DNA of 64,000 bases from Candidatus Kerfeldbacteria bacterium (lineage in GTDB: Bacteria > Patescibacteriota > Patescibacteriia > UBA9570): assembly GCA_016182495.1 (NCBI GenBank), contig JACPGK010000022.1, positions 11,092 through 75,091 of the forward strand. The letters are read 5' to 3'. How positions within the stretch are numbered: the first letter of the stretch is position 1; each line of letters opens with the position of its first letter. The notes below the pieces were generated by a model that saw only the letters and a program-made list of their open reading frames with translations, searched no databases and was not told the origin of the DNA. Both the position numbers and the translations under genes were made by a program. Below are positions 14,779 through 58,051 of the stretch, piece after piece.

Positions 14779-14789
14779 GATGGTACATT

Positions 14790-21383: not shown

Positions 21384-21395
21384 GGTCGTAAAAAA

Positions 21396-22502: not shown

Positions 22503-22506
22503 TGGT

Positions 22507-23376: not shown

Positions 23377-23407
23377 GTGTACTCTTACTACAGAACATAG
23401 TAGATCT

Positions 23408-23803: not shown

Positions 23804-23860
23804 GAAGGCAGTCGTTTTTTGTATCGGCTCTATTTAGTTTCCTAAGAGAAAAATGTATTT

Positions 23861-25225: not shown

Positions 25226-25244
25226 TTGATTAATCAATACTGAT

Positions 25245-25484
25245 ATGAAACAGTTATATACGTTCATGATTAACGGTATGACCTGCCATGCCTGTGAAAA
25301 ATTAATTACCATGGATTTAGCCGAGGCTGGCTATGCCACAAAATCTATTAATCATCAGTCGGGTGAGCTAACGATTGAAATTGAACCGGTCGACGTTGAT
25401 CGCGTCAAACAAGCCATTCAACAGAGTAAAACCTATATCGTCACTGATGCGTACACTGTTACCGACGTTAAGCTTGCTCACTAA
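25245..25484 (+). CDS. copZ: Copper chaperone CopZ (HMA domain)
   Basis: 79 aa with [11 protein letters not shown]. Confidence 0.8.
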
Positions 25485-25494
25485 ATATACTTCT

Positions 25495-29932: not shown

Positions 29933-31348
29933 ATGCAGCGGATTACTCGGAAAAATTTTTTTGCAGCTTTAACGGCTGTTTTTTTATTCAGCGCTATTCC
30001 GGTTGTTACCCAAGCTGCTAGCTATATTCGATCACCACAAGTACGTTTGTGGTCAGAAACTAGCAGTGGGTATCAATCACCCAAGCAGTTTTTTGCTTAT
30101 GATGCCAGTTTTACTGGTGGTGGCACAGTCGCAGTGGGCGATGTCGGTAAAGATAGAATTAATGAAATTATTACCGCCGCTGGGCCGGGAGGTAGTCCGC
30201 AAATTCGGATTTTTCGAGTAGATGGCTCATTCATCGGACAATTTTATGCCTACGATCAAGGGTTGCGATCCGGCGTTAATGTGGCCAGTGGCAATATTGA
30301 TAAAGACGCCTCTGGTGAAATTGTCACCGCACCAAAACAAGGTGGTGGTCCGCAGGTGCGGGTATTCACTGGCCGAGGCCAAGTGGACCAAACCGTTGGG
30401 TTTTTTGCCTACGATGAACAGTTTCATGGCGGAGTGAATGTAGCCGTTGGTGACCTCACGGGTGACGGTATTGATGAAATCATTACCGGTAATGGCATAG
30501 ATGGATCACCACACGTGCGCGTATTTTCTGGTGCTGGCCAATGGTTAGGATTAGACTTTTTTCCATTTGCCGAAACTATGCGCGGCGGTGTGAGTGTGGC
30601 TAGTGGTAATATCGATGGCGGCAATGATGAAGAAATTATTACAGCGGTGCAATCAGGCGGTCAGGCTTGGGTAAAAATTTATAAATATAATTCCGCGCGT
30701 ACAATTATAGCTGAATGGAAAGCCTGGCCAGATGATTTTACCGGCGGTATCAACGTGGCGGCTGGTGACGTTGATAATGACGACCGCGATGAAGTGATTG
30801 TGGCTATCAATGGGCGAGGTGGACCGCAAGTAAAAATATTTGAAGCCGATGGCACCGCCATTAATCCAGGCTGGTTTGTGTACGAAGAAGATTTTTATAG
30901 CGGAGTAAGTGTAGCCGTCGGGCAAATTGATCAATCCGCCCAGGCCGAAATTGTCACCTTGCCGAGCAAACTTCCACCCGATGGCCGCACCGATGTTGAT
31001 CGGTATGTGCGGGTTGATTTAAGCGAGCAACGTTTGTACGCTTACGATCATGGTTATCAAGTAAACACATTTTTAATATCGTCTGGTTTACCCCGTACTC
31101 CCACACCGCCAGGGGAATATCATATTCAACGTAAAATTTATAGCCACCTGTATTCTGGCCCGGGTTATTATTTACCAAATACACTCTACAATTTACAATT
31201 TCGCCCGCACTACTATTTACATGGCGCGTATTGGCATAACAATTTTGGTCATCCCATGAGCCACGGTTGTGTGAACATTCACTACGATAACGCTAAGTGG
31301 CTGTACGATTGGATGCAGCCAGGAGATTTAGCAATGATTGAATTATAG
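29933..31348 (+). CDS. Secreted FG-GAP/VCBS-repeat protein with C-terminal L,D-transpeptidase (YkuD) domain
   Basis: It has a signal peptide and six or more FG-GAP-like repeats (..GDVGKDRINEIITAAGPGGSPQIRIF..). The C-terminal YkuD motif is SHGCVNIHYDNAKWLYDW. Confidence 0.75.
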   Translation: MQRITRKNFFAALTAVFLFSAIPVVTQAASYIRSPQVRLWSETSSGYQSPKQFFAYDASFTGGGTVAVGDVGKDRINEIITAAGPGGSPQIRIFRVDGSFIGQFYAYDQGLRSGVNVASGNIDKDASGEIVTAPKQGGGPQVRVFTGRGQVDQTVGFFAYDEQFHGGVNVAVGDLTGDGIDEIITGNGIDGSPHVRVFSGAGQWLGLDFFPFAETMRGGVSVASGNIDGGNDEEIITAVQSGGQAWVKIYKYNSARTIIAEWKAWPDDFTGGINVAAGDVDNDDRDEVIVAINGRGGPQVKIFEADGTAINPGWFVYEEDFYSGVSVAVGQIDQSAQAEIVTLPSKLPPDGRTDVDRYVRVDLSEQRLYAYDHGYQVNTFLISSGLPRTPTPPGEYHIQRKIYSHLYSGPGYYLPNTLYNLQFRPHYYLHGAYWHNNFGHPMSHGCVNIHYDNAKWLYDWMQPGDLAMIEL

Positions 31349-31400
31349 ATTGTCAAAATAGATCGAGTCAGGTATTCTCCTAATACTCTGGAGGAGAGTG

Positions 31401-31493
31401 ATGTATCAAATAGGCACCTGTTTTAATTGTGGACGAGTTGATCGACGCCTGCGTTGTCGCAGAAGCGATGATTTGGTACGGTGTGATACTTGA
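31401..31493 (+). CDS. Candidate small Cys-rich peptide (30 aa) with strong Shine-Dalgarno
   Basis: GGAGGAG lies 5 nt upstream of the ATG. The peptide is MYQIGTCFNCGRVDRRLRCRRSDDLVRCDT (CxxC...C...C). Confidence 0.3.
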   Translation: MYQIGTCFNCGRVDRRLRCRRSDDLVRCDT

Positions 31494-31861
31494 AGGAATA
31501 GCTCATATGGCTGTTCCTTTACCATTTTTCGGGATTATTCCTAATGTACCGGCGGACGAAAAATAATTCCCGTTCAGAATGAATTATTCGTTCATAATAT
31601 CGGGATTGCCATTGAAAATGAAGTAACGGCGGATTTATATGTTTGCATAATTGATGGCAATGAATGACGCGGTAATGGACCGAATGTATTTTTTTTAACG
31701 GGCGTTCGATAATCCTAATCTGATAATCGAATTGATGAAATACGATAACGATTTTGATATTTTTTCTGCCACATAAAAAGCGCTTCCTGGTCTGGCAGCG
31801 TAAAATTTTTGTTGCAATTTCATTTGACCTAAAATCAAAATTGTTTTATTGTACATAAAAT

Positions 31862-33256
31862 ATGAAAAAAGCAATCATTGTTTCGGTGATAACAACTGCC
31901 TGCCTGCCCATAGCTGCCTTGGCAGTTGATAGCATGAATCCAGAAGTACGAGTATTCAATGCTAATTTTGAACAAACTGCCAGCTTTACTGCTCTCGATG
32001 GTAAATTTCAAGGTGGCACAGATGTGGCGGTAGCCGATATCACCGGCGACGGCCAAGCTGAAATTATTGTAGCAGCCAGCCGGGGCGGTGGACCATTAGT
32101 ACAGGTATACCAGGCTGATGGCCAGTTGTTAAATCAATTTTTTGCCTATGATCAAAATTTACGTGCTGGTGTAAAGGTAGCCGCTGGTGATTTAAACAAG
32201 GATGGCAAAGCTGAAATTATTACGGGAGTAGAAGCTGGCGGCGGTCCCCAAATACGAATTTTTAATGGCGCTGGCCAACCCCAATTTACTGGTGGTTTTT
32301 TTGCTTTTGATAGCAGTTTTCGAGGCGGGGTAGATGTGACGGTTGGTGATTTTAATGGCGATGGTACAGTAGAGATCGCCGCTGCGGCTGGCCCAGGCGG
32401 CTCACCCCATGTGCGCCTATTCAACAAAAAAGGTAATTTTATTGGTACAGAGTTTCGGCCTTTTGCCGCTGATAATCATGGTGGCGTTAGCTTAGCCACA
32501 GCCAATGTGGATGGCGGTGCCGATGATGAACTGGTCATGTCTATTCACTCGGCTGGAGAAGGCTGGGTGAAAGTATATAAAAATAATGGTCAAATTATCG
32601 GTGAGTGGAAAAATTTTCCCGGCTTGTATAGTGGAGTGGTGGTAGCAGCTGGCGATGTTGATGCTGATGGGTTTGATGAAATTGCCGTAAGCCCACGACA
32701 AAGTGCCGGGCCACAAGTGTTGTTTTTTGAAGGGCATGGTCAATTGATGAATACCGGTTTTTTTGCTTACCCCAGTGATTTTCGTGGCGGTGTTCGGATA
32801 GCTGGTGGAGATACGAATGGCGATGGAGTTGATGAATGGGTCACTGTGCCAGGTAAAAATCGTGCCCAAGGTAGAGCCGACCTAGTGCGTTATATCGAAA
32901 CTGATATTTCTGAACAAACTACTCGCGTGTACGAATACGGTGAATTGGTGCGCAAATTTAAAGTATCAACCGGCATCGTTCGCTATCCCACACCCATCGG
33001 TCAATGGCAGGTGCTACAAAAAATCTATAATAAAGATTACGAATGGACGTACGGTCCTGATCATCCGGATAATTATAATATCAAAAATGTAAAATGGAAT
33101 TTACGCTATAATGGCCCACTGTATTTACACTATGCCTATTGGCATAATAATTTTGGCTACCGCATGAGTCATGGTTGTACCAATATTGATCGTGTCAATG
33201 CCGAGTGGCTTTATAATTGGGCCCAAGTAGGCGATGTTGTCATTAATAAAGATTAG
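31862..33256 (+). CDS. Secreted FG-GAP/VCBS-repeat protein with C-terminal L,D-transpeptidase domain (paralog of 29933..31348)
   Basis: It has the same architecture. YkuD motif SHGCTNIDRVNAEWLYNW. Confidence 0.75.
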   Translation: MKKAIIVSVITTACLPIAALAVDSMNPEVRVFNANFEQTASFTALDGKFQGGTDVAVADITGDGQAEIIVAASRGGGPLVQVYQADGQLLNQFFAYDQNLRAGVKVAAGDLNKDGKAEIITGVEAGGGPQIRIFNGAGQPQFTGGFFAFDSSFRGGVDVTVGDFNGDGTVEIAAAAGPGGSPHVRLFNKKGNFIGTEFRPFAADNHGGVSLATANVDGGADDELVMSIHSAGEGWVKVYKNNGQIIGEWKNFPGLYSGVVVAAGDVDADGFDEIAVSPRQSAGPQVLFFEGHGQLMNTGFFAYPSDFRGGVRIAGGDTNGDGVDEWVTVPGKNRAQGRADLVRYIETDISEQTTRVYEYGELVRKFKVSTGIVRYPTPIGQWQVLQKIYNKDYEWTYGPDHPDNYNIKNVKWNLRYNGPLYLHYAYWHNNFGYRMSHGCTNIDRVNAEWLYNWAQVGDVVINKD

Positions 33257-36434: not shown

Positions 36435-36483
36435 GTTTAACCATAATATTGACAGTTTGTAAAAAAAATGCTATACTTCTGGC

Positions 36484-37560
36484 ATGCAAACTGGTTCTAT
36501 ATTAGATCGCATTATTGCTAGCAAAGAAGATCAAGCCAAACAAAATTTTGATCCAGCCGAGGTTATTGCCATTATTTTAAAAAAGCTCACCACTAAAGAG
36601 GCTGATGTTTTACAGCGCCGATTTGGTTTAAACGGGGTAGCTCAAGAAACCCTCGAAGCCATTGGTAATTCGTACCACGTCACTCGCGAACGAGTTCGTC
36701 AGATTGAAAATTTAGCGATCAAAAAGCTACAACACGATCCTAATTTTAGCAACCTGATGAAACCAATTGAACACGTTGTTATGACTGTTTTAGGTGAACA
36801 TGGTGGTATGATGAGCGAAGCCCAGCTGCTGGAAGAATTATTTTTAGGGGTGCGTTCGGCTAGCAATGATCAAGCTATTCTGTTTATTTTGTCAGAATTA
36901 GTTGATTATCGTTTCGATCAAATTGGTCCTGATGAAGAATTTCTCAAGGCTTGGAAAAATAAAACTACTGATATTGCTGCTATTGAAACAATCATTACCC
37001 AGTTAATTAATATCATCGCTGCTGCTAATCAGCCATTAAGCTTTGTGGATATTTATAATAAGATCAACGATCACACCATATCACGCTCGGCGGTAGAATC
37101 ATACTTACGTATTAGTAATCAGCTGGCTCGTAACCCTTTTGATGAATTTGGTTTGCAACAATGGGGTAGCGTGATACCGCGACGGATGAATGATAAAATT
37201 TATTTAGTATTAAAAAAGTTTGGTAAGCCGATGCATTTTGTAGACATCGCCCAAAAAATAACCGAAGTGTTTAAAAAAGAAGCCTATCCGCCAACCGTGC
37301 ATAATGAGTTGATTTTAAATAAACAGTATGTGTTAGTTGGTCGCGGCATTTATGCTTTACATGAATGGGGGTATCAACGTGGCGTAGTGGCCGATGTGGT
37401 GGCAGAAATTTTAAAAGCTAGCCCGCAACCATTAACGCGCGATGATATTGTGGCAGCGGTCTTAGAACAGCGGCTAGTGAAGCGTAATACCATTCATTTG
37501 GCGCTCACCAATAAACAACGGTTCGTGCGTTTAACGGACGGCCGTTATACTTTAGCGTAA
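36484..37560 (+). CDS. Sigma-70 region-4 (HTH) domain protein with unknown ~270-aa C-terminal region
   Basis: Residues ~30-90, KEADVLQRRFGLNGVAQETLEAIGNSYHVTRERVRQIENLAIKKLQH, match sigma70 region 4.2. It has no region 2 or 3. Confidence 0.55.
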   Translation: MQTGSILDRIIASKEDQAKQNFDPAEVIAIILKKLTTKEADVLQRRFGLNGVAQETLEAIGNSYHVTRERVRQIENLAIKKLQHDPNFSNLMKPIEHVVMTVLGEHGGMMSEAQLLEELFLGVRSASNDQAILFILSELVDYRFDQIGPDEEFLKAWKNKTTDIAAIETIITQLINIIAAANQPLSFVDIYNKINDHTISRSAVESYLRISNQLARNPFDEFGLQQWGSVIPRRMNDKIYLVLKKFGKPMHFVDIAQKITEVFKKEAYPPTVHNELILNKQYVLVGRGIYALHEWGYQRGVVADVVAEILKASPQPLTRDDIVAAVLEQRLVKRNTIHLALTNKQRFVRLTDGRYTLA

Positions 37561-37568
37561 TTTTATTT

Positions 37569-39137
37569 ATGCCCCCGTTTCTGCAAGCTCTCCTGATCGA
37601 GTACGGCTCTAATCCATTCAAGGCATTTTGGTTTTTGTTTAGCCATGGTGGGTCCTTGGTGATTATTCCGTTTATGGTGCATTACGCTTGGCGTGGTTGG
37701 ATTTTGTATATTGAAGAATTAGTCAAACATCACCGTAAATACAAAATGTATCGCATTGAAGTACCGCAAAACAACGAACAAAGTATGAAAGCGGTGGAAC
37801 AAATTTTTGTACATATTTATGGCACCAAAGATCATCCTCATAATCGAGTGCATAAGTATTGGCATGGGTTTTGGCAAGAAGAATTTAGTTTTGAACTAGT
37901 TAGTGATGGTGGTTATATCAGTTTTCATGTCCGTACCCCAGCCTACTATGGCGAATTGGTTCAAGCAGCTTTTTATGCACAATATCCTGATGCCGTATTA
38001 ACCGAGATAGAGGATTATACTAAAGAAATTACTCCAGAAATGATTATGTCTGAAAAAATCCGTTGCTGGGGATCAGAAATGGAACTAGAACAAACTGATG
38101 TGAGACCAATTAAATGTTGGCCAGCGTGGGAACATAACTTAGTCGGTCGAGCAGTTGATCCGTTAGCTTCAATTTTAGAATTTATGAGTCGCCTTCAGCC
38201 CGGTGAACGATTGTGGTATCAATTAATTTGTCAACCAGATGACCTGCCAGAATTAAAAGAACGGGCCAAAGAATTGATCGATTCAGTAGTAGAACCTGGC
38301 GGAGTGCATCATGGAGCGTCAATTCTTGACCGTATTATTGATTTCCCAATAAAGTTACTAGAATATCTTGGTATGGCTGTATTTGGTGGAGAGGCTACTC
38401 CGGTCATTCACGAAACAGGTTTAACTGAACGACAACGTCTCACCACTCCAGAACGAGAATTAGTTGAAGAAGTTGATCGTAAAGCCTCTCGCTGGCCATT
38501 TCGCTGCAAGTTACGGTTTATGTATTTTGCTTCTCCAAAACTATACGATGAAAAAAAGGGCCGTCGCGGCATGGTAGGTGGATTAAAGTTGTATCGTTTT
38601 ATTAATGCTTTTGAAGAAGGTCATCGTACGCGTACCGAAGTAGCTACCTTATGGCTTCGTTGGATTGCTCCTCATATCAGAATATTGTGGCGAGCCCGTC
38701 GCATGCTGTGGGCCTATAAATCACGTGATACCGAACGAGGAGAGCATCATGGTTTTATTTTGAGTACCGAAGAAATTGCCAGTGTATTTCATTTTCCGCA
38801 AATTGAAGTGCGGGCGCCATTTGTGGCAAAAACTGCTAGTCGGGGAGTTGAACCACCCACTCAATTACGCTATGGTGCGGTAGAAGAAGCTTTGGTTGGC
38901 GCCAGTGTTAGTATAGAACGAGATGATGTTGCAGCCAACGAGTTACCGCGGGCTAATATTGTGCCTGAAGAGGCGAATAGTCATCCAGGAGCCATTCCTC
39001 CAGGAACGCGCTTCTCTACACCAATCGTTCGGGTTGAACCAACTTCGACTGCGGTTACACCAGTAAACACTGCCCCAGCTAGTGCCAAGGCTGAACCATC
39101 AGGCCCAACCCCACCACCTAATTTACCAATTGTGTAA
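37569..39137 (+). CDS. Hypothetical membrane-associated protein, co-operonic with TraD-like ATPase
   Basis: 522 aa with two N-terminal hydrophobic helices. The gaps are 8 nt to the upstream gene and 1 nt to the downstream ATPase. Confidence 0.45.
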   Translation: MPPFLQALLIEYGSNPFKAFWFLFSHGGSLVIIPFMVHYAWRGWILYIEELVKHHRKYKMYRIEVPQNNEQSMKAVEQIFVHIYGTKDHPHNRVHKYWHGFWQEEFSFELVSDGGYISFHVRTPAYYGELVQAAFYAQYPDAVLTEIEDYTKEITPEMIMSEKIRCWGSEMELEQTDVRPIKCWPAWEHNLVGRAVDPLASILEFMSRLQPGERLWYQLICQPDDLPELKERAKELIDSVVEPGGVHHGASILDRIIDFPIKLLEYLGMAVFGGEATPVIHETGLTERQRLTTPERELVEEVDRKASRWPFRCKLRFMYFASPKLYDEKKGRRGMVGGLKLYRFINAFEEGHRTRTEVATLWLRWIAPHIRILWRARRMLWAYKSRDTERGEHHGFILSTEEIASVFHFPQIEVRAPFVAKTASRGVEPPTQLRYGAVEEALVGASVSIERDDVAANELPRANIVPEEANSHPGAIPPGTRFSTPIVRVEPTSTAVTPVNTAPASAKAEPSGPTPPPNLPIV

Positions 39138-39138
39138 T

Positions 39139-41055
39139 ATGGCCAATGAACACATAACTGTATTTGCTGCTACCAACTTCCGTAATCAACGGCGCAATTT
39201 TGGTATTAAAGTTGATGATCGTCGCCGGCACATGTATTTGGTTGGTAAAACTGGCATGGGCAAATCAACCGTGATTGAGAATACTATTATTAATGATATT
39301 CGCGCTGGTCATGGCGTGGCCTTAGTTGACCCGCACGGTGATTTGGCGGAAAAAGTATTACGATATATTCCTACCAGTCGAGTAAATGACGTGATTTATT
39401 TTAATCCGGCTGACATTAATTATCCCGTAGCTTTTAACATTTTAGAAAGTGTTGGTCCGGAATACAAACATCTGGTGGCCTATGGTTTAGTAGGAGTATT
39501 CAAAAAAATCTGGGCTGATTCCTGGGGGCCACGCATGGAATATATTTTAACCAATACCATTTTAGCTTTGCTGGATTATCCCGGTAGTTCATTATTAGGC
39601 GTCATGCGCATGTTGGTAGATAAAGCCTATCGTAAAAAAGTAGTTTCTAAAGTGACCGATCCAGTGGTCAAAACATTTTGGACGGATGAATTCGCCAATT
39701 ATTCAGAAAAGTTTCGTTCCGAAGCCATTGCTCCAATTCAAAACAAAGTTGGACAATTTTTAGCTTCATCGATTATTCGTAATATCGTTGGTCAATCCAA
39801 AAGCACTATTGAAATGCGCGAAATCATGGATAATCAAAAAATTCTCATCATGAATTTATCAAAAGGCCGGGTAGGCGAAGAGAGTTCTGCCTTGCTTGGA
39901 GCCATGATGATTACGAAATTACAAATTGCCGCCATGAGCCGAGTAGATATTCCGGAAGAAGACCGCAAAGATTTTTATCTCTATGTTGATGAATTTCAAA
40001 ATTTTGCCACGGATAGTTTTGCTGGAATACTATCGGAAGCTCGTAAATACCGCCTCTGTTTAATTATGGCGCATCAATATTTAGAACAATTGGGAGATGT
40101 GGTGAAAGCAGCCGTGTTTGGTAACGTTGGTACTATAGTAGTGTTTCGAGTAGGTGCCACTGATGCCACAGAGATGGAGCCAGAATTCGCTCCCCAGTTT
40201 ACCGCGCAAGATTTAGTGAATTTAAAAAAATATACTTTTTGTTTACGTTTAATGATTGATGGAGTAGCCACCGAACCGTTTTCAGGCATTGGTTTACCAC
40301 CAGTCACCGGCGAAACCGATGTGTTTGATAAAATTATTCGAGTGTCGAGAGAACGCTATGCTCGCCCTCGCGCCATGGTTGAGGAGCGGATATTGCGCTG
40401 GAGTGGAGTGGAAATCACCGGTGCCATTAAACCGGCTGGTGAAGAAGCTAATACTGAAGCGAGCGATGAGGATACCACTGACGATACCACAATGGATATT
40501 CCTGCTGCTGTGGAAACTAATCAACCAGCGACTGGCTCGGTGGTAAGTTTAATACCAGAAGAACCCGACCTGCCAATAACTGTATCAACCAGTCCAGAGG
40601 TAAAGCCAATTCGTCCGAAGATTAATTTTGTTCGTTTGGAACTACCAGATGATGACATCAAGCCAGCTGTTCCGAATCCAGTAACCGTTGAAGCAGTTCA
40701 GCCCAGTACACCAGTCCCACCGTCTAAACCAATAGTTATTCCAGCTCATACTGTGTCCTTGTCAGATTTGCGCCAAGGCAATGTTGAGCGCGTTAGTTTT
40801 TCTGGCAGTCAAAACCGATCACCTCAACAACCACAGCTTCAACCACAGCCATCGACCATGGCAGAAGACCCTGTACGTAAAAAACGCCACCGCCGTCGCA
40901 ATAAAAAACCAAGCCAAGATCAATGGCAAAATACAACACCTGTACAGCCACCAATCCAACCAGTTCGTCCGCCTGCACCCAAGCCAGTGCCACCACCAGC
41001 CAACAATCAAACGATTGATCCAACCAAGGTATCATTGAATGATTTGTTTAATTAA
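39139..41055 (+). CDS. FtsK/HerA/TraD-superfamily P-loop NTPase (VirD4/TraD coupling-protein-like, TraG-D_C type) with Pro-rich C-terminal tail
   Basis: Walker A LVGKTGMGKST, VDPHGDL, Walker B-like LYVDEFQNF. The C-terminal 200 aa are low-complexity P/Q-rich. Start chosen at MANEH (39139). Confidence 0.7.
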   Translation: MANEHITVFAATNFRNQRRNFGIKVDDRRRHMYLVGKTGMGKSTVIENTIINDIRAGHGVALVDPHGDLAEKVLRYIPTSRVNDVIYFNPADINYPVAFNILESVGPEYKHLVAYGLVGVFKKIWADSWGPRMEYILTNTILALLDYPGSSLLGVMRMLVDKAYRKKVVSKVTDPVVKTFWTDEFANYSEKFRSEAIAPIQNKVGQFLASSIIRNIVGQSKSTIEMREIMDNQKILIMNLSKGRVGEESSALLGAMMITKLQIAAMSRVDIPEEDRKDFYLYVDEFQNFATDSFAGILSEARKYRLCLIMAHQYLEQLGDVVKAAVFGNVGTIVVFRVGATDATEMEPEFAPQFTAQDLVNLKKYTFCLRLMIDGVATEPFSGIGLPPVTGETDVFDKIIRVSRERYARPRAMVEERILRWSGVEITGAIKPAGEEANTEASDEDTTDDTTMDIPAAVETNQPATGSVVSLIPEEPDLPITVSTSPEVKPIRPKINFVRLELPDDDIKPAVPNPVTVEAVQPSTPVPPSKPIVIPAHTVSLSDLRQGNVERVSFSGSQNRSPQQPQLQPQPSTMAEDPVRKKRHRRRNKKPSQDQWQNTTPVQPPIQPVRPPAPKPVPPPANNQTIDPTKVSLNDLFN

Positions 41056-41058
41056 GTC

Positions 41059-42651
41059 ATGCAACGCGCTTGCGTTCAGTGTCATCAATCCTTCGCAGTG
41101 TTTGAGCGCGATCAAATATATTATCAACAGCTCGGCGTACCTACTCCAACCAAGTGTCCACAATGTCGCTTTCAATTACGCCTGTCGTTTCGGAATGAGC
41201 GTTTTTTGTATCAACGCAACTGCCAGCTTTGCCATCAACCAACGTTATCTCAATATGCAACAGATAAACCATATACAATATATTGTCGCCAGTGTTGGTG
41301 GTCTGATCAATGGGATCCGCTAGATTTTGGCCAAGTGATTGATTGGAACCGATCGTTTTTTGAACAATTCGCAGAGGTAAAACTACAGGTGCCGCGCTTG
41401 GGGTTACTCAATGATGCGGACAGTGAAAATAGTGATTTTTGCAACCGCGTAAACAAACTGAAAAATTGCTATATGATTTTTGACGCCGTTGCTAATGAGA
41501 GCTGCATTTACGGTTCCGGCATGTATGGCAATAAAGATAGTGTTGATTGTGATTATTGTGATCGCGTTGAGCTGTGTTATGACTGTAGCTATTGCACAGA
41601 CAGTTATGGTTTACGTTATAGCCGCGACAGCGTGAATTGTCGTGATAGTGCGCTATTAGTTGATTGTGTGGGCGTTTCCAATAGTTTGATGTGTGTCGGT
41701 TTACGCAATGTCCAATATTGTTATAAAAACAAACAACTAACCCAAGCCGAATTCCAAACCGTTTGGAATAATTCTAATTTTGATAAAATTGAATTTGAGC
41801 AATTTGCCCTAACAATTCCGCGGCGGTATTACCAAGGCGTTCACAATGACGATAGTAGTGGCGATCATTTAGTGAACACCCATGCCGTCCTAAATTCATT
41901 TCAAGTACGTGATAGTGAAAATTGTGGGTACTGCTATGGAGTACATCATGCTAAGGATTCCTATGACTATACGATTTGGGGTGAACAGGCTGAATTAATG
42001 TATGAAGATCATGCTTGCGGCGGGCAATGTTCAAAAATTTGGTTTGGAAACGTGGTGTGGTACGGCCATGATACTTTGTATTGCGACCATTGTTTAAACG
42101 GGGCAATTAATTGTTTTGGTTGTGTTGGTCTTAAGAATCAGCAAAATTGTATTTTAAACAAACAATACTCACCAGACGAGTATCAGCAATTAAGCCAACG
42201 TTTGATTGAGCAGATGCGTTTAACCGGAGAATATGGTCATTTTTTTCCAGCCAGCTTGAGCGATTTTTGTTATAATGAAACTATGGCCCAGGAATTTTTT
42301 CCCTTAACCAAACAACAAGCCTTGGCCAGTGGTTGGCAATGGCAAGATCATTTACCTGGTAGTTACGGCCAGGCTGATTTGGCGAAGCAGATTTATACTT
42401 GTGCAGCATGCACTAAAAATTTTCGTTTAATTGCTCCTGAATTAAAATTTTATCAGCAGCAAGGCATTCCCTTGCCAATCCGTTGCCCAGATTGTCGCCA
42501 TGCCGAGCGCATGAAATATCGTTCACCGTATCAATTATATAATCGTCAGTGTATGAAACCAGGTTGCCCGAATCATTTCCAAACAGCCTATGGTCCAGAT
42601 CGGCCGGAAATTATATATTGCGAGGACTGTTATCAGAAAGAGATGTATTAA
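41059..42651 (+). CDS. Cys-rich zinc-ribbon repeat protein, array member P1 (unknown family)
   Basis: 530 aa. N-terminal module CVQCHQSF..PTKCPQCRFQLRL, central CxxC-rich repeats (FGCVGLKNQQNCILNKQYS), the GEYGHFFPASLSDFCYNETMAQEFFPLT motif, and a C-terminal module CAACTKNFRLIAPELKFY..PIRCPDCRH. It starts 3 nt after the ATPase stop. Confidence 0.75.
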   Translation: MQRACVQCHQSFAVFERDQIYYQQLGVPTPTKCPQCRFQLRLSFRNERFLYQRNCQLCHQPTLSQYATDKPYTIYCRQCWWSDQWDPLDFGQVIDWNRSFFEQFAEVKLQVPRLGLLNDADSENSDFCNRVNKLKNCYMIFDAVANESCIYGSGMYGNKDSVDCDYCDRVELCYDCSYCTDSYGLRYSRDSVNCRDSALLVDCVGVSNSLMCVGLRNVQYCYKNKQLTQAEFQTVWNNSNFDKIEFEQFALTIPRRYYQGVHNDDSSGDHLVNTHAVLNSFQVRDSENCGYCYGVHHAKDSYDYTIWGEQAELMYEDHACGGQCSKIWFGNVVWYGHDTLYCDHCLNGAINCFGCVGLKNQQNCILNKQYSPDEYQQLSQRLIEQMRLTGEYGHFFPASLSDFCYNETMAQEFFPLTKQQALASGWQWQDHLPGSYGQADLAKQIYTCAACTKNFRLIAPELKFYQQQGIPLPIRCPDCRHAERMKYRSPYQLYNRQCMKPGCPNHFQTAYGPDRPEIIYCEDCYQKEMY

Positions 42652-42652
42652 T

Positions 42653-44092
42653 ATGATCAAGCAATGTGCCCAGTGCAGTAAAACCTTCCAGATTGATAGC
42701 AGTGATCAGGATTTTTATAAACGAATGCAGGTGCCAGTCCCAAAGCTGTGTCCGAATTGTCGTCAACAACGGCGCCTAGCTTGGCGCAATGAACGTAGTT
42801 TGTATCCAGGAACTTGCCAGCATTGTCGTAAGCCTCTGATTTCACTGTATTCACCGAACAAACCGTATACAATTTATTGTCAGGATTGTTGGTTATCTGA
42901 TCAGTGGGATCCTTTTGATTACGCTCGAGATTATAACCCCAAACAATCTTTTTTTGAGCAAGTCAGGGAATTGCAATTGGTTGTTCCGCGCATGGCTATC
43001 ACTATCCGAAATTGTGAAAACAGGATTGCATGGATTTTATCATGCCGTATCAATGTCAATTATGCTACGAAGTGATTGAATGCAGCGATTGTTACCACTG
43101 TTTATTTTCCCAGCGCTGTGCCAATTGCCGAGATTGCTATTTTTCCTATAATTGTCGTAGTTGCCATGATTGTTTTGGTTGCATCAATTTGCGTAATAAG
43201 CAATATTGTTGGTTTAATCAACAACTCACCGAGGCTGAATATAAAGGCCGATTACAAAACATAGCATGGACTCACCAAACCATTGCCGACTATCGTTTAC
43301 AATTCGCTCAATTAAAATTGACTCAACCACATCTGGCCAGTGAACAAATTCATTGCGAAGCTAGTACTGGCGATTTAATGAAAGGATGTAATCATACCGA
43401 GTATGGTTTTGATGTTTACGATCAAGAACACACATCATATGTCTTTGATGTTCGCGAGACCAAAGATAGCCATGATTTATTCATCGGCGGATTTGGTAAT
43501 GAATTAACCTATGAATGTCATAGTGCCTTGCAAACGCAACACGGTGTCAGTTTGAATGTTTGCTGGGATGGTAATTATAATCTGTATTATTGCGATCACT
43601 GTTTTACCTCACATGATTTATTTGGTTGTATTGGATTACGTCAGCAGCAGTTTTGTATTTTAAATACACAGTATAGTGCAGTTGACTATAAAAAAATTAC
43701 ACGACAAATCATCGCCGATATGACACAAACGGGGGAGTGGGGAGAATTTTTTCCAATCTCTTTATCACCATTTGCCTACAATGAAACAGTAGCGCAAGAA
43801 TATTTTTCATTAACTGAAGCAGCCATTAAGGCCAATGGGTGGCAATGGCAGTCAATGTCGAAAAAATTATCGAATTGTGCCAACTGAACTGGCATATTAT
43901 CGGCAATTTGGTGTACCAATTCCACAACTGTGTCCACAGTGCCGACACTTGGCGAGAATGAAAATGCGTAATCCGCGACAGTTGTGGCAACGTCATTGTG
44001 CCAAATGTGCTGCCATGGTTACAACAACCTATGCACCTGATCGGCCGGAAATTATATATTGTCAAGATTGTTATCAGCAGGCGGTGTATTAG
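42653..44092 (+). pseudogene. Frameshifted member P2 of the Cys-rich family (three frame segments)
   Basis: The N-terminal module (42653..43075), central part (43030..43887) and C-terminal module (43835..44092) are homologous to intact paralogs but lie in three different frames. Confidence 0.7.
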
Positions 44093-44127: not shown

Positions 44128-44151
44128 CCCCTTCTCTTGCAAGAGAAGGGG
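44128..44151. repeat. Perfect 24-bp GC-rich palindrome CCCCTTCTCTTGCAAGAGAAGGGG
   Basis: Seen directly. It belongs to a three-member family in the array and has no downstream T-run. Confidence 0.6.
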
Positions 44152-44258
44152 CTATGGTAACAATAATTACTGTCTAAGACGCGTCTATTGCCAAAGGAAG
44201 GTTTCCATGCTACGCTTGTTTAGCGTCCTAGTTTGGGCGCATTTTATTTATTATAAAA

Positions 44259-44669
44259 ATGTTAGCGAAAAATAAGATACCCCCAGAGATTAATTTTCAA
44301 AAGAAATTACATTATATTTCTCGTAAATTACGCGCTCACTCAACCGCAGCAGAGAAATATTTGTGGCAATTTTTACGAAGGAAACAAATATTAGGTTTAA
44401 GGTTTTTACGGCAACATCCAATTGATCGCTTTATAGTCGATTTTGTTTGTTATCGTTTTAAGATTATTATAGAAGTAGATGGTCCAATACATTTAATTCA
44501 TCAAGGCAGAGACAAACAACGAGACGAAAGGTTACAGCAATATGGTTATGTAATATTGCGTTTTAGTAATGATCAAGTTTTACATGAAATTAATAGCGTA
44601 TTAGCTATAATTAAACAACAAACCCTCTCTTCCCTTGTAAGGGAAGAGAGCAGGAGAGATGGGATCTAA
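44259..44669 (+). CDS. DUF559 / Vsr-like endonuclease-domain protein
   Basis: The motifs IVDFVCYRFKIIIEVDGPIH...RDERLQQYGYVILRF match the restriction-endonuclease-like DUF559 fold. GC-rich palindromes lie on both sides. Confidence 0.65.
   Translation: MLAKNKIPPEINFQKKLHYISRKLRAHSTAAEKYLWQFLRRKQILGLRFLRQHPIDRFIVDFVCYRFKIIIEVDGPIHLIHQGRDKQRDERLQQYGYVILRFSNDQVLHEINSVLAIIKQQTLSSLVREESRRDGI
44625..44650. repeat. GC-rich palindrome CTCTCTTCCCTTGTAAGGGAAGAGAG
   Basis: Seen directly. It overlaps the 3' end of the DUF559 ORF. Confidence 0.55.
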
Positions 44670-44798
44670 AGTAGTATCTAAATTAAGTTTACATCTCATC
44701 TATTTTTTTTGGCTAACATTAGATTCAATATTAAGCTCAAACAATAAAAATCTAAAACACTTTGACTACGTTTGGCGGTGAAGTATACTAATGTTTAT

Positions 44799-46508
44799 AT
44801 GACAAAACAATGTAAACAGTGCAGCAAGACATTTCAAATTAGTAGTGATGATCAAACGTTTTATCAAAAAATATCAGTGCCTGAACCAACTTTATGTCCT
44901 GATTGTCGATCACAACGGCGGTTAGTGTGGCGCAATGAACGTAGTTTATACTCCCGACAATGTGATTTGTGTCATAAACCTATCATCTCACTCTACCGTG
45001 CTAACAGCCCTTACACAGTGTACTGTTATGCTTGTTGGTATTCTGATCAATGGAATGGATCCGACTACGCTCGCGAGATCGATTGGCAGAGATCGTTTTT
45101 TGATCAGTTTAAAGAATTACAGTTACGGGTACCGCGCCTATCTGCTTTTATGGTAAACAACGAAAATTGCGAATATACCAACGGCACACTGGGTTGTAAA
45201 GATTGTTACATGATTTTTGCTAGCGATCATAATGAAAACTGTATGTATTCATACGGTATTTTTAGCAGTGTGACTACACTAGATGTATTAAGCGGAAAAA
45301 ATTGTGAATTATGTTATGACTGTATTGGTTGCACTAATTGTTTTAATGTACGGTATTCTGAAGATGCCAGTAACTGTAATACTGCTTATTTTTTGTTGGA
45401 TTGTAAAGGTTGTGGTGATTGTTTTATGTCGTATGGTTTACACAACCGTAATTATGTTTGGAAAAATGAACAATTAACAGAGGCTGAATATAAAGAACGC
45501 TTAGCCAAAACTCAACTAGGTAGCACGCAAACCATTAAACGTTTAAAAGCAGATTTTAAAGAATTAAAAAAGAAACATACTTTTAAATATTATCACGGTC
45601 AAAATAATGATAATTTTTCCGGAGATTACTTAGAGCGCTGCCATAATACCTGGCAATCATTTGAATGTTACGAGATTGATAACTGTAAATTTATTACGCA
45701 TGGCAATCAAATTAAAGATTGCTACGATGGTTATATGAACGTCGATCAGTGTGAGCTTGGTTATGAATTAGTCGGTTCGGTTGGGGCCTACAACACTAAA
45801 TTTGCTGCTGCCTGCTATACCGGCTCATATTCCTATTACATTGATTCCTGTAAACAAGTGAAAAATGTGTTTGGGTGCATTGGTTTGCAAAATCAGCAAT
45901 ATTGTATCTTGAATAAACAATATTCTGAACAAGAGTATTGTATTACGCGCGATAAATTAATTAAGCAGATGTCCGCAATCGGTGAGTATGGTGAATTTTT
46001 TCCGGTCAGCTGCTCGCCTTTTACCTATAATGAAACTGCCGCTATGGATTCATTTCCGTTAAGTCAAACCGATGTAGTCAATCGAGGTTGGAATTGGCAC
46101 ACACCACCTGATAAACAACAGCGTTTCAGCAGCTATCGTTTGCCAGATACGATTGATAAAGTGGAAGATGATGTATTGGAAAATTTTCTCACCTGCGAAC
46201 AGTGTCAAACTTTTTATAAAATTATTCCAGCAGAATTACGCTTGTATCGCGAGCACATCATCCCCGTCCCACGGCAGTGTTTTAATTGTCGCCACGCTGG
46301 CCGATTGCAACAACATACTCAACGGTCTTTATGGCAACGCCAATGTATGTGTACCCGCCCGCCAGGGCAAGCCGCAGGCGTTGCGGGCGCGGCCCAACCC
46401 GAACATGGCCATGGTGGTTTGTGTCAGAACAATTTTGAAACGGCCTATAGCACTGATAGTATTACTATCGTATACTGTGAGGATTGTTATAATAAGACTA
46501 TAGTATAA
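44799..46508 (+). CDS. Cys-rich zinc-ribbon repeat protein, array member P3
   Basis: N-terminus MTKQCKQCSKTFQISSDDQTFYQKISVPEPTLCPDCRSQRRLVWRNERSLY. It carries a GC-rich insertion (RPPGQAAGVAGAAQPEHGHGG) in the C-terminal module. The track ORF uses TTG 44772. Confidence 0.75.
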   Translation: MTKQCKQCSKTFQISSDDQTFYQKISVPEPTLCPDCRSQRRLVWRNERSLYSRQCDLCHKPIISLYRANSPYTVYCYACWYSDQWNGSDYAREIDWQRSFFDQFKELQLRVPRLSAFMVNNENCEYTNGTLGCKDCYMIFASDHNENCMYSYGIFSSVTTLDVLSGKNCELCYDCIGCTNCFNVRYSEDASNCNTAYFLLDCKGCGDCFMSYGLHNRNYVWKNEQLTEAEYKERLAKTQLGSTQTIKRLKADFKELKKKHTFKYYHGQNNDNFSGDYLERCHNTWQSFECYEIDNCKFITHGNQIKDCYDGYMNVDQCELGYELVGSVGAYNTKFAAACYTGSYSYYIDSCKQVKNVFGCIGLQNQQYCILNKQYSEQEYCITRDKLIKQMSAIGEYGEFFPVSCSPFTYNETAAMDSFPLSQTDVVNRGWNWHTPPDKQQRFSSYRLPDTIDKVEDDVLENFLTCEQCQTFYKIIPAELRLYREHIIPVPRQCFNCRHAGRLQQHTQRSLWQRQCMCTRPPGQAAGVAGAAQPEHGHGGLCQNNFETAYSTDSITIVYCEDCYNKTIV

Positions 46509-46531: not shown

Positions 46532-48112
46532 ATGTCTATTTGTCAAACCTGCCAAACCAATTTTACCATCACCAGTAATGATCAGCTATTTTATGACAAA
46601 GTAAAAGCACCGTTACCAGTACAATGTCCGCAATGCCGCTTGCAGAAACGCTTAGCGTATCGTAATGAACGCAGCTTGTTTAGCAGCATTTGCGGTTTGT
46701 GTCATAAAAATATTTTGTCATTATATAATCCAGCTGATCAGTTCACCGTGTATTGCAACGATTGTTGGTGGTCAGATAAATGGGAACCAACCAATTATGG
46801 CCGCGCCATTGATTGGTCGCGTTCCCTGATTGAGCAGTGGAATGAAGTACGCCGAGCGGTACCGCGTTTAGCTTTGGTGAGCTTGAATAGTGAAAACTCT
46901 GATTACACGAACATGTCATCGGATAATAAAAATTGTTATTTATTATTCGCGGCCGAAAATAATGAAAATTGTTCCTATGGTAAATTAGTGCAAAAATGCA
47001 AGGATTGTTTCGATTGTAGTTTTATTTACGATTCTGAATTGTGTTACGGCTGTGTGAATATTCGTAATTGTTATCACAGTATTTATTTGCAAGATTGTCA
47101 GGATTCGCGGGATTGCGGTTTTTCGATTGGTTTGCGCGGTTGCAGTAATGTTTGGTTCAGTGCAAATTTGCACAATAAAGAATATTATATTGCTAATCAG
47201 TCGGTGCCACCAGCTGAATTCCAGCAACGGGTGCAAGTTTTAACAGCTGATGCCGTCGCGTTAAAAAAAAGTTATCAAACTTGGCGAGAATTAAATAAAG
47301 ACAGGATTGTAAAATATGCTCACAACATTAAAAGTGACGGCTGTACCGGCGATAGTTTAACCGACTGTAAACGTATCTATGACAGTTTTGATGTTACCGG
47401 CGGTCAGGACTGTGCGTATATGACCGATGCCTTAGAGTCGCGAGATTGTTATGATGCATCGTTTATTTATTATAAGCCAGAATTAGTGTACGATAGTTTG
47501 AGTATGTTGCAGTGTTATAATGTGCAATATTCCGTGTTTACGTTTTATACATCAGACAGCCAGTATTGCGATCAAGTGCACAATTCAAAAAATATCATGT
47601 TGTCATCCTGTTTACGTAATAAACAATTTGTAATTCTAAATAAACAATACAGCCAAGCAGAATATGAAGTCCTGCTGCCAAAAGTGATTGCCGCCATGAC
47701 TACAGTAAGTGATTATGGTCAACTACCACCAGCTGAACATAGTTTATTTGCCTACAATGATACTGTAGCCCAAGAATATTTTCCGTTAACCAAACAACAA
47801 GCACTGGCGGCTGGGTATCGTTGGAATAATGCCGCGGATGAACGAATACACAAACCATTTAAGCTTACTCAATCAGAATCAGTTTTTTATCAAACCATGA
47901 ATTTACCAGAACCAACTGAACATCCTGAATTACGTCATCGGGCGCGCATGGCTTTACGCAATCCTCGTCAGTTGTGGCAACGACCATGCCAGTGTACCCA
48001 AACAAATCATAATCATGCTACTACTTGCCCAGAAGTGTTTTTAACTAGTTATAGTACTGATCGTCCTGAACAGGTGTATTGTGAGCGGTGTTATCAACAA
48101 ACCGTCATTTAA
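46532..48112 (+). CDS. Cys-rich zinc-ribbon repeat protein, array member P4 (C-terminal ribbon cysteines lost)
   Basis: The N-terminal module is intact. In the C-terminal module the CxxC..CPxC positions are replaced (HKPFKLTQSESVFY..PEPTEHPELRHRAR). Confidence 0.72.
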   Translation: MSICQTCQTNFTITSNDQLFYDKVKAPLPVQCPQCRLQKRLAYRNERSLFSSICGLCHKNILSLYNPADQFTVYCNDCWWSDKWEPTNYGRAIDWSRSLIEQWNEVRRAVPRLALVSLNSENSDYTNMSSDNKNCYLLFAAENNENCSYGKLVQKCKDCFDCSFIYDSELCYGCVNIRNCYHSIYLQDCQDSRDCGFSIGLRGCSNVWFSANLHNKEYYIANQSVPPAEFQQRVQVLTADAVALKKSYQTWRELNKDRIVKYAHNIKSDGCTGDSLTDCKRIYDSFDVTGGQDCAYMTDALESRDCYDASFIYYKPELVYDSLSMLQCYNVQYSVFTFYTSDSQYCDQVHNSKNIMLSSCLRNKQFVILNKQYSQAEYEVLLPKVIAAMTTVSDYGQLPPAEHSLFAYNDTVAQEYFPLTKQQALAAGYRWNNAADERIHKPFKLTQSESVFYQTMNLPEPTEHPELRHRARMALRNPRQLWQRPCQCTQTNHNHATTCPEVFLTSYSTDRPEQVYCERCYQQTVI

Positions 48113-48239: not shown

Positions 48240-49052
48240 TTGACCACGGTACGCAATACACTTATGCTTACTACGAAATTAAAGAAAGATCTTTTACAAC
48301 TTGGTTTAAGTGACAACGAGATTAAATTCTATGTGGCTGGTTTAGAACTGGGCTTAGCCACTGTCCCACAAATTGCCCAGCGTGCTGGTTTATCACGCAT
48401 GAGCGGTTACAATATTTATAAAAGTTTGAATCAGCAAGGCTTAGCCGAAATGGACGTGCGCAATTACGGCCAAAAATGCAAAGTCGCCAAACCGGCAAAA
48501 TTATTGACGCTGTATGAGCAAAAAACCCGCCAACTTGATAAACTGGCTACTGACTTGCCGAATTTAATTGGAGAGCTCAATGTGCTGTATGCTAGTGTGC
48601 CGGAAGATTTAGAGATTCATTATTATCGCAGCAAAGATGCCATTATGAAAGTGTGGGATGAAGCACTCACCAACACTAAGAAAGGCGATGATATTTTGAC
48701 GATTGCAGCAGTTGATTTTGCGCCCACGCTCGGTGCACATTTTGTTGAGTATATAGAAGAATTAGCGTTACGCTGTCAAGAAAAAGGCATTCATCATAAG
48801 TTGATTCTTGAACAAACCGGTTCTTATTCCTATGATCGTAAACTATTGCAAAAAATATTTCCAAAATCAATCATGATGAAGTTAGGGGCGACGGTTGAAC
48901 AGATGGTCTATGCTGATTACGCCGCTTTCATTTTTCCCGGCAAAGAATTATTCGCTATCACTATTCATAGCAAAGAATTAGCCAATCACTTTTCAAGAAT
49001 ATTTTATACCCTGTGGAATACGGTACATGCAACGACAATGCGTACAATGTAG
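48240..49052 (+). CDS. TrmB-family HTH transcriptional regulator
   Basis: The N-terminal winged helix LGLSDNEIKFYVAGLELGLATVPQIAQRAGLSRMSGYNIYKSLNQQGLAE and a C-terminal TrmB-like domain. TTG start. Overlaps the P5 start by 26 nt. Confidence 0.6.
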   Translation: MTTVRNTLMLTTKLKKDLLQLGLSDNEIKFYVAGLELGLATVPQIAQRAGLSRMSGYNIYKSLNQQGLAEMDVRNYGQKCKVAKPAKLLTLYEQKTRQLDKLATDLPNLIGELNVLYASVPEDLEIHYYRSKDAIMKVWDEALTNTKKGDDILTIAAVDFAPTLGAHFVEYIEELALRCQEKGIHHKLILEQTGSYSYDRKLLQKIFPKSIMMKLGATVEQMVYADYAAFIFPGKELFAITIHSKELANHFSRIFYTLWNTVHATTMRTM

Positions 49053-50697: not shown

Positions 50698-50719
50698 CTC
50701 CCCAACCCCTCCCTTGCAA
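50698..50719. repeat. Perfect 22-bp GC-rich palindrome CCCCTCCCTTGCAAGGGAGGGG
   Basis: Seen directly, 10 nt after the P5 stop. Confidence 0.6.
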
Positions 50720-50748
50720 GGGAGGGGCGAAGGGGAGAGATCAAAAGT

Positions 50749-52425: not shown

Positions 52426-52426
52426 T

Positions 52427-58050: not shown

Positions 58051-58051
58051 T

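Follow-up and report, generated by a model that had tools for sequence, protein, structure and literature searches.

A DUF8128 protein and a coupling-protein-like ATPase as a conserved Patescibacteria module, and its association with arrays of cysteine-rich zinc-ribbon proteins

The DNA considered here is a 64-kb window from the metagenome-assembled genome of a Candidatus Kerfeldbacteria bacterium, an ultra-small member of the Patescibacteria (contig JACPGK010000022.1 of assembly GCA_016182495.1, positions 11,092 to 75,091), and its subject is a row of four genes at 36484–42651, the last of which opens an array of cysteine-rich (Cys-rich) genes. All coordinates are positions in the window, and all four genes lie on the + strand. 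Gene 1 (ATG 36484 to stop 37560, 358 amino acids (aa)) encodes a protein with a sigma-70 region 4 (sigma-r4) and a HARE-HTH domain; gene 2 (ATG 37569 to stop 39137, 522 aa), a protein of the DUF8128 family by homology; gene 3 (ATG 39139 to stop 41055, 638 aa), an ATPase resembling type IV coupling proteins (T4CPs); and gene 4 (ATG 41059 to 42651, 530 aa), the first Cys-rich paralog, P1. The gaps between them are 8, 1 and 3 nucleotides (nt). An earlier note, made from the sequence alone, had called the four genes co-operonic, and its coordinates and gaps are confirmed here, with a promoter-like site in front of gene 1 and no terminator-like site between the genes.

That promoter-like site (36449–36477, + strand) is of the sigma-70 type, TTGACA-17-TATACT, matching 11/12 positions and carrying a TG extension, and it is the strongest in 33.5–46 kb. 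Its -10 hexamer ends 6 nt before ATG 36484, so that an mRNA starting there would probably be leaderless or nearly so. Between the four genes, neither promoter-like (≥10/12) nor terminator-like sites were found. The first terminator-like hairpin on the + strand past the operon start, GCGTCC..GGGCGC followed by a T-rich tail, lies at 44223–44240, and a second promoter-like site (44762–44789, + strand; TTGACT-16-TATACT, 10/12) ends 9 nt before the ATG of paralog 3 at 44799. Judged from the positions of these sites, the likely transcription units are a five-gene unit, comprising the sigma-r4, DUF8128 and ATPase genes, paralog 1 and the pseudo-paralog 2, and then the rest of the array; the genes at 36484–42651 look like one operon with its own strong promoter. 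The two promoter-like sites both end 6–9 nt before an ATG, suggesting leaderless mRNAs. A junction with a 1-nt gap, TAAtATG, is used three times (39135–39141, 42649–42655 and 52423–52429) and joins DUF8128 to the ATPase, paralog 1 to paralog 2, and paralog 6 to paralog 7. Stop/start junctions of this type are typical of termination–reinitiation coupling. Short gaps alone are ordinary in operons, and the above-chance evidence is comparative.

With the ATPase core as query, 80 loci belonging to many Patescibacteria lineages were retrieved from a genome collection; the counts below are by locus, over those loci with enough flank, and refer to the loci examined. Loci with the module span Kerfeld-, Falkow-, Uhr-, Moran-, Nomura-, Jackson- and Veblenbacteria. 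A DUF8128 gene lies directly upstream of the ATPase gene in 65/69 loci, the sigma-r4/HARE-HTH gene lies upstream of it in 54/58, and SecF (with SecD) is found upstream in 39/52. The orthologous sigma-r4 gene itself has a promoter-like site (≥10/12) within 100 nt upstream in 46 of 58 loci; in other lineages, this conserved promoter mostly stands 22–60 nt from the start codon. By its synteny, the order (SecDF)–sigma-r4/HARE-HTH–DUF8128–ATPase is an ancient chromosomal Patescibacteria module and not mobile cargo. The pairing of the ATPase with the adjacent membrane protein, two parts of the module that the earlier note had proposed to compare across genomes, thus proves to be conserved, and in other lineages the two are even fused.

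In the first gene, a domain scan places Sigma70_r4 at residues 32–84 (E 4e-13) and a HARE-HTH/RNAP-delta-like domain at residues ~235–295 (E 3.6e-9). The description of this gene as "sigma-70 region-4-only" therefore holds for region 4 and fails in the word "only". Of the sigma-70 regions, region 4 alone was matched and region 2 was not found, so the protein does not qualify as a sigma-70 sigma factor; it also scores far below the cut-off of every RpoD, RpoS, RpoH and extracytoplasmic function (ECF) model, e.g., 67 vs. 555 bits. Its match to TIGR04567 (E 2.5e-8, 34 bits) is under the 42-bit cut-off of that model. The sigma-r4/HARE-HTH gene is confined to the SecDF-linked core module and never occurs at the other loci where an ATPase gene accompanies Cys-rich genes.

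The ATPase consists of a core (residues 1 to ~440) and a disordered, Pro/Gln-rich tail of ~200 aa (40470–41055). The Walker A motif GKTGMGKST (from residue 37), DPHGD, the Walker B motif DEFQNF and the Pro/Gln-rich tail, all reported previously, are present in the translation. An alternative start at GTG 39082 was considered and rejected, as homologues align from residue 1–6 of the ATG 39139 version. Pfam models match TrwB_AAD_bind (E 1.3e-10, 41.2 bits vs. a 20.5-bit cut-off), TraG-D_C (25.6 bits vs. a cut-off of 22) and DUF87, and a comparison with PDB sequences finds TrwB (2e-6) and DotL (0.015). The protein thus has an FtsK/HerA-superfamily P-loop core similar to TrwB/VirD4. A hydrophobicity scan found no N-terminal transmembrane (TM) domain in the ATPase polypeptide; its sole hydrophobic maximum (KD19 1.57) falls well inside the chain, at residue 337 of the scanned 657-aa GTG-start open reading frame (ORF), or ~318 from ATG 39139, and the membrane helix comes instead from the separate DUF8128 gene. 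The ATPase also falls below every NCBIfam T4CP equivalog cut-off, among them SXT_TraD (40.5 vs. 366), CD1115 (34.1 vs. 250), TOL TraD (29.6 vs. 648) and F-type TraD (22.1 vs. 521). VirB4, VirB6, relaxase and pilus genes are absent from the 64-kb window, and none recurs in 167 related loci. Because it is without a TM domain, neighbours of a type IV secretion system (T4SS) and equivalog-level scores, the ATPase is, as far as these comparisons indicate, not a canonical TraD/VirD4 coupling protein; of the earlier designation as a TraD/VirD4-like coupling ATPase, the sequence likeness survives and the canonical role does not.

An NCBI protein assigned to Candidatus Kerfeldbacteria matches the ATPase at 100% identity. 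The ATPase family has at least 8000 homologues, and its core is 66–85% identical across Patescibacteria. In many homologues from other lineages, the otherwise disordered tail carries zf_Tbcl_2, i.e., a CxxC-x17-CxxC zinc ribbon. The motif [IV]SLx[DE]L occurs in 34/71 disordered ATPase tails (loci L001–L165), compared with 0.4 in shuffled tails, and the tail in the window contains it twice, as VSLSDL and as the C-terminal VSLNDLFN. This tail motif is a candidate docking peptide. On one contig (L070, 1–1206), a second ATPase of a short clade lies ~8.7 kb upstream of an ATPase of the SecDF-linked type, and therefore one genome can hold both classes.

Gene 2 was placed in a family by an indirect route. 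A local Pfam-A scan gave no family for it, nor did it give DUF8128 for a fusion protein (L081) that carries PF26449 in precomputed data; an identical database protein (P0241) is without a precomputed hit, and PF26449 stands on most of the 120 homologues listed (27–63% identical). Through this homology, gene 2 is assigned to DUF8128 (PF26449). A hydrophobicity scan detects an N-terminal hydrophobic helix at about residues 18–42, and the AlphaFold2 (AF2) model (pLDDT 82, pTM 0.73) consists of a long N-terminal helix, an alpha/beta domain at 58–410 and a disordered tail; the protein is read as membrane-anchored, with the alpha/beta domain in the cytoplasm. The tail is Pro-rich and ends in PPPNLPIV. 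A conserved PPxNLP closes DUF8128 tails and is a second candidate docking peptide.

In Peregrinibacteria and other loci, DUF8128 and the ATPase form a single protein of ~747 aa. Its first ~300 aa share homology with the DUF8128 domain (BLASTP 1e-13 together with matches of a hidden Markov model (HMM)), and its C-terminal ~445 aa are 50% identical to the ATPase of the window; an HMM built from gene 2 homologues likewise matches the N-terminal half of the fused ATPases. By these homologies, DUF8128 and the ATPase are two halves of one motor, split here and fused elsewhere. When the DUF8128 model was compared with the PDB by Foldseek, the best 12 matches were all TrwK/VirB4 of the R388 T4SS, with E down to 4e-5 and a probability of 1.0, and we infer that the predicted DUF8128 fold is probably the counterpart of the N-terminal domain in VirB4. 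In the fused protein, the order of domains and the overall size are VirB4-like, which is consistent with this fold match.

The Cys-rich proteins of the array comprise P1 and seven other paralogs of ~550 aa with 31–47 Cys each. P1 has 38 Cys in its 530 aa, with zf_Tbcl at both ends according to a domain scan. Its layout is an N-terminal zinc-ribbon pair, a duplicated beta-helix, a helical GEYGxFFP/YNET region and a C-terminal ribbon pair. In the AF2 model of P1 (pLDDT 87, pTM 0.89), zf_Tbcl and a CxxC-x17-CxxC ribbon stand together at either end; between the ends lie a pair of beta-helix halves, both closing in FGCxGLRNxQY, and the helical region, here GEYGEFFP/YNET. The CxxC-x17-CxxC ribbon occurs twice in every Cys-rich protein, and the 16 ribbon ligand cysteines are 73–100% conserved, whereas the beta-helix cysteines are less so. 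Neither the PDB nor viral models contained a significant neighbour of the Cys-rich model, and only weak matches to left-handed beta-helices and to isolated zinc ribbons were returned. The family is large: a search of 90% clusters gives 4,725 matches at E<1e-5, and at 50% identity there are 2,446 clusters that reach E<=1e-30. Its lengths are uniform at ~545–600 aa. Within the window, the paralogs are 34–44% identical to each other. Positional orthologues of P1 (61–73% identical) follow right after the ATPase gene in L002 and L007, while the available L086 sequence opens with an orthologue at 65%; among the related loci compared, paralogs 3 and 4 also have orthologues and the other paralogs have none.

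The link between these arrays and the ATPase was followed from both sides, over a total of ~170 related loci. From the ATPase side, an array lies downstream in 9/80 SecDF-linked loci (8/63 with >3 kb of flank), namely in the closest relatives of the window and, separately, in L057. Measured by the refuting condition in the earlier note, orthologous ATPase operons of relatives that never adjoin Cys-rich genes, this side looks negative. The Cys side, a metagenome scan with the Cys family plus contig look-ups, reverses the picture; it comprises 82 non-redundant loci, mostly 35–41% identical to paralog 1. These hold 25 ATPase genes in 904 kb vs. ~1.8 expected, a ~14-fold enrichment with a Poisson p of 3e-20, where the expectation of ~2 genes per ~1-Mb genome comes from one paper's counts and an assumed genome size and the loci are not phylogenetically independent; at 5 expected per Mb, p is still 2e-11. 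All of the ATPase genes (25/25) are on the same strand as the Cys genes. An ATPase gene no more than 3 kb from the array is present in 21/82 loci; among the loci with ≥3 kb on both sides, the figure is 5/12.

The ATPases at these Cys-side loci are 43–61% identical to that of the window and fall into separate clades, so that four clades or architectures are found at arrays: SecDF-linked, fused, zinc-ribbon-tailed and short. The fused ~747-aa ATPase stands 45–143 nt after the last Cys gene, DUF8128 with a zinc-ribbon-tailed ATPase stands in front of the array, and the short ~490-aa ATPase lies inside or behind arrays. In L167, DUF8128 and then a 770-aa ATPase precede nine Cys genes, which are followed by CutA1 and a second ATPase. 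TrmB-like genes adjoin arrays in ~18 loci and are the sole other recurrent neighbour; besides them, the clusters of flanking ORFs reflect lineage-specific housekeeping synteny only, e.g., one family common to 9 loci, which we take to be phosphoglycerate kinase.

The two families also share a domain. The HMM of the Cys family aligns ~40 ATPase tails at its positions ~48–79 or ~530–553, which are the second ribbon of the N-terminal or of the C-terminal pair, respectively; in paralog 1, this N-terminal ribbon is C55-x2-C58-x17-C76-x2-C79. The link is with the ATPase family and not with this orthologue. The earlier note had raised the conservation of an ATPase, membrane protein and Cys-rich gene module elsewhere: for the ATPase family, the association recurs in four arrangements and above chance, and for the SecDF-linked orthologues it mostly does not. 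With recurring adjacency, strand concordance and a shared zinc ribbon behind it, a functional partnership of the ATPase family and the Cys family is well supported. Loss of the tail zinc ribbon was considered as the cause of arrays in the SecDF-linked clade and was rejected; the correlation is imperfect, with both a tail ribbon and an array in L057 and neither in many loci.

Beyond P1, the array continues on the + strand to 55714. Paralog 2 (42653–44092), which starts 1 nt past the P1 stop, is a pseudogene or an assembly error in three reading frames, and its fragments (42590–43075, 43030–43887 and 43835–44092) all match the family HMM. Paralogs 3 (44799–46508) and 4 (46532–48112) are followed by a TrmB-family helix–turn–helix (HTH) regulator (48264–49052, + strand; PF01978, 32.9 bits vs. 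a 25.6-bit cut-off), copies of which within the arrays of L005, L006 and L007 are 72–77% identical to that of the window. Then come paralogs 5 (49027–50688), 6 (50749–52425), 7 (52427–54106), whose start is 1 nt past the preceding stop, and 8 (54140–55714). The last lacks the first CxxC knuckle through a deletion or frameshift after ATG 54130; in the stretch 54130–54232, this normal-looking start (MIKQCVQ) is out of frame with the remainder, and paralog 8, like paralog 2, may be in decay.

The array is interrupted at 44259–44669 by an inserted DUF559 endonuclease-like gene. Elsewhere, selfish or defence genes likewise lie in or beside arrays, with PhdYeFM and AbiEii in L085 (9351–9834, 11926–12486) and with PemK, PIN, HicA, Fic and integrase genes in L083 (1–5619). 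The arrays appear to be insertion-tolerant, flexible regions. GC-rich palindromes of type CCCTTGCAAGGG are present in or near intergenic regions of the array at 44138–44161, 44625–44650 and 50700–50735; a 16-mer of this palindrome type has two matches vs. 0.12 expected, and these palindromes are possibly terminators or else small repeat elements.

At the right end of the array lies a tyrosine recombinase gene (55871–56617, − strand). It sits divergently before GC-rich, ~155-nt attC-like repeats and small cassettes at 56.8–60.2 kb. The repeats have a 12-bp terminal inverted repeat (AACGCCTCGCGG...CCGCGAGGCGTT) and a GTTAGGC end; full copies are at 56835–56990 and 57899–58050, and partial copies at 59153–59210 and 60210–60238. 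The small ORFs that they separate are at 57126–57578, 58013–58573, 59282–60196 and 60260–60730. One attC-like repeat folds strongly as single-stranded DNA (z -6.9). Because the model matches are split, the recombinase seems to be without the IntI-specific insertion; by position and orientation, it is part of an integron-like cassette row that faces away from the Cys array. At 56648–56700, 30 nt upstream of the recombinase start codon, an 11-nt unit is perfectly repeated in tandem (GTTCAGTTCTC x4.8), and its copies are possible binding sites. Downstream of the cassette row, 61360–63253 holds a pair of AbiEi antitoxin-like (E 1e-38) and AbiEii toxin-like (E 1.5e-29) genes.

The remainder of the window contains lepA, ftsW, mur genes, secA, Fic genes, metal ATPases and secDF. 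Three tandem Fic-domain genes lie at 11020–15848, and a heavy-metal cluster at 19401–28197 comprises two P-type ATPases, HMA domains, a DsbD_2–cupredoxin gene and a MacB/FtsX ABC pair with a YHS domain. Upstream of secDF, 29933–33256 encodes two paralogous proteins of 464–471 aa with signal-peptide-like N-termini and repeats; the pair is kept at this place in close relatives, and its C-termini carry an SHGC motif that we take to be L,D-transpeptidase-like.

Part of this was already described. A 2025 survey (PMC12102498, Microb Genom) counted 5,713 orphan VirD4-like homologues in 2,918 Patescibacteria genomes, only 148 of them near virB4, and reported that S. epibionticum can grow epibiotically without them, calling them "possibly exapted". 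The ATPase family of the window is almost certainly this group of homologues. The survey gives no genomic context or partners for them and mentions neither SecD nor zinc, and the text of a preprint on Saccharibacteria genetics (PMC10187176) does not mention a coupling protein. The searchable literature does not mention DUF8128 or PF13451, and it offered no relevant paper on a family of cysteine-rich paralogs in the candidate phyla radiation (CPR) or on CxxC-x17-CxxC. The ATPase family is thus already known, whereas its DUF8128 partnership, the secDF/sigma-r4 synteny and the link to Cys arrays are not described in that literature.

Starting from what is observed, i.e., the operon layout, the homologies, the fusion, the fold match, the shared zinc ribbon and the statistical genomic association, we propose that the Cys-rich proteins would be a dedicated partner family of the DUF8128/ATPase motor, kept as tandem diverged paralogs with a TrmB-like regulator. 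Each carries four zinc ribbons on the flanks of a duplicated beta-helix. The paralogs would dock via their terminal zinc-ribbon modules on the variable C-terminal tail of the ATPase or on DUF8128, and, once docked, they would be passed across or to the membrane as substrates. Alternatively, they would be interchangeable adaptors, with each beta-helix surface bringing a different cargo. We judge the chances to be evenly balanced that the Cys-rich paralogs are clients of the motor that dock by their terminal ribbons, whether as substrates or as adaptors. Export, which the earlier note had imagined as delivery to a host or partner cell, would be one version of this. What the proposal says on binding between the partners, on where the system acts (export or cytoplasmic) and on the kind of cargo is inferred. 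The further step, in which this would be a hitherto undescribed, minimal protein-handling machine independent of a canonical T4SS, its motor exporting Cys-rich clients or installing them at the envelope, e.g., for episymbiotic contact, seems doubtful to us.

Several observations weigh against this proposal, and some of them bear on export in particular. The VirB4 fold match has a low TM-score (~0.29), the tool does not indicate which VirB4 domain was matched, and a DUF8128 profile found no match among PDB sequences, leaving the VirB4 likeness without sequence support. A hydrophobicity scan finds the N-terminal hydrophobic helix in split DUF8128 proteins and none in the fused ATPases, which weakens an export role; so does the clustering of 865 flanking ORFs, among which no recurrent channel or membrane component was found. 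The Cys-rich proteins are without a signal peptide, and their four presumably Zn-bound ribbons suit cytoplasmic proteins. About half of the fully bracketed arrays (L083, L085, L098 and L166) are without an ATPase within 3 kb. Finally, most SecDF-linked ATPases are without an array, and the link between array and ATPase is therefore facultative.

The soluble appearance of the fused ATPases and the lack of a recurrent membrane channel would fit a motor that acts on nucleic acids, like FtsK, HerA or DNA-pumping T4CPs, in which case the Cys-rich proteins would be cytoplasmic zinc-finger cofactors for DNA/RNA binding or targeting rather than substrates. The superfamily of the ATPase (FtsK/HerA/T4CP), the DNA-binding-type sigma-r4/HARE-HTH protein next to it in the core module and a basic RRLAWRNER stretch that precedes the zinc ribbons all point this way. 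However, the Cys-rich proteins are mildly acidic (isoelectric point (pI) 5.6–7.3) overall, and the beta-helix that makes up the bulk of each is not of a type known to bind nucleic acids. At the loci of the other Cys-linked ATPases, the sigma-r4 gene never occurs, and up to 11 diverged paralogs would be unusual for a DNA-handling cofactor; we regard this explanation as unlikely. Diversified beta-helix paralogs could also sense or attack phages or competitors in a conflict or defence system, with the ATPase powering or licensing them and TrmB regulating them. Such a system would explain the patchy presence and variable copy number of the arrays and their place in flexible regions with toxin–antitoxin (TA) and Abi genes (L083 and L085; in the window, the DUF559 gene and, to the right, the integron-like row and AbiE), and the ATPase has weak PADLOC matches to mad8 (5e-13) and HerA. 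Yet PADLOC matches none of the Cys-rich, DUF8128 and TrmB proteins and recognises no defence system in the module, and domain and structure searches found no recognisable toxin or nuclease domain. Moreover, one member of the ATPase family is a near-universal SecDF-linked core gene, whereas defence genes are typically accessory, and some paralogs are conserved one-to-one between genomes, all of which makes a defence role rather improbable.

An array that merely landed behind a highly expressed conserved operon in one clade and was inherited there, with the other adjacencies due to co-accumulation in variable regions, would account for the low count among SecDF-linked loci (8/63), for the several arrays without an ATPase nearby and for the loose spacing in relatives, where the distance from the ATPase to the first Cys gene ranges from -18 to 2039 nt and ORFs intervene in L002, L005 and L011. 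We disfavour this absence of a functional link and consider it very unlikely, as it is difficult to reconcile with the ~14-fold enrichment and complete strand concordance, with an association in four separate ATPase clades and differing gene orders, and with a zinc-ribbon domain common to both families while no other family recurs except the TrmB-like regulator. The earlier note had offered another origin, in which an integrative element with the tyrosine recombinase at 55871–56617 carries the whole 36.5–55.7 kb segment as cargo. The position of that gene at the right end of the array and the GC content of the array, slightly below that upstream, would be expected of such cargo. However, the left 4.6 kb are deeply conserved core synteny with secDF, and arrays occupy the same position in related genomes. 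A tRNA scan found no tRNA genes in the window, and an Rfam scan of it was also empty; no att-like direct repeats were found flanking the segment, where all repeats are coding similarity between paralogs. The recombinase has no counterpart in the related loci available and points away, before its own attC-like row. An integrative-element origin is essentially refuted for 36.5–41 kb, and for the segment as a whole we find it hardly credible.

Client proteins docking on the DUF8128/ATPase motor thus remain our preferred reading. Patescibacteria make up a large share of bacterial diversity, and most of their conserved genes are without known function. The 2025 survey gave no answer as to why almost all of their genomes retain about two orphan VirD4-like ATPases at a distance from a T4SS, and the comparison made here supplies three concrete partners for that family: DUF8128, the sigma-r4/HARE-HTH protein and the Cys-rich family with its TrmB-like regulator. 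For two large protein families that had not been characterised, it also offers a first pointer to function. Should export of the Cys-rich proteins, or their installation at the envelope, prove true, episymbiotic bacteria would have a new route of secretion.

Among known systems, VirB4/TrwK resembles the predicted motor in two respects. The fused form has DUF8128 N-terminal to an ATPase core of ~440 aa in a protein of ~747 aa, similar in size and order, and TrwK/VirB4 chains are the sole significant PDB fold matches of the DUF8128 model. In contrast, the ATPase half here is nearer to VirD4 than to VirB4 in sequence, the protein of the window is split into two genes, DUF8128 is anchored by its own helix whereas VirB4 is anchored by VirB3, and VirB3, VirB6 and VirB8 genes are not nearby in the window. 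For the Cys-rich proteins, the likeness is to zf_Tbcl and zf_Tbcl_2 ("probable treble clef"), one of each being present at both ends. These Pfam families are defined by sequence only and have no function assigned, and the ~350-aa Cys-rich beta-helix core between the ribbons falls outside any Pfam family.

EccC/EssC of the type VII secretion system (T7SS), with tandem substrate genes, and DotL of the Dot/Icm system, with the adaptors IcmS/IcmW/LvgA, are ATPase-plus-client systems. By analogy, the locus would share with them an FtsK-like/T4CP ATPase gene beside several small-to-medium paralogous client genes, and possibly the recognition of clients through C-terminal regions of the ATPase. The Cys-rich family is not, however, homologous to WXG100, LXG or IcmSW proteins, and channel components were not found around the arrays. 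The closest likeness of the ATPase itself is to the type IV coupling proteins VirD4/TrwB/TraD/DotL, with which it has in common the P-loop core with Walker A and B and a long, variable, disordered C-terminal tail. In TraD and DotL, this tail is the region that binds partners or adaptors. It also differs from them in several ways: the ATPase of the window is chromosomal, near-universal in Patescibacteria and secDF-linked; the partner of its family is DUF8128; and, in other lineages, its tail carries a zinc ribbon.

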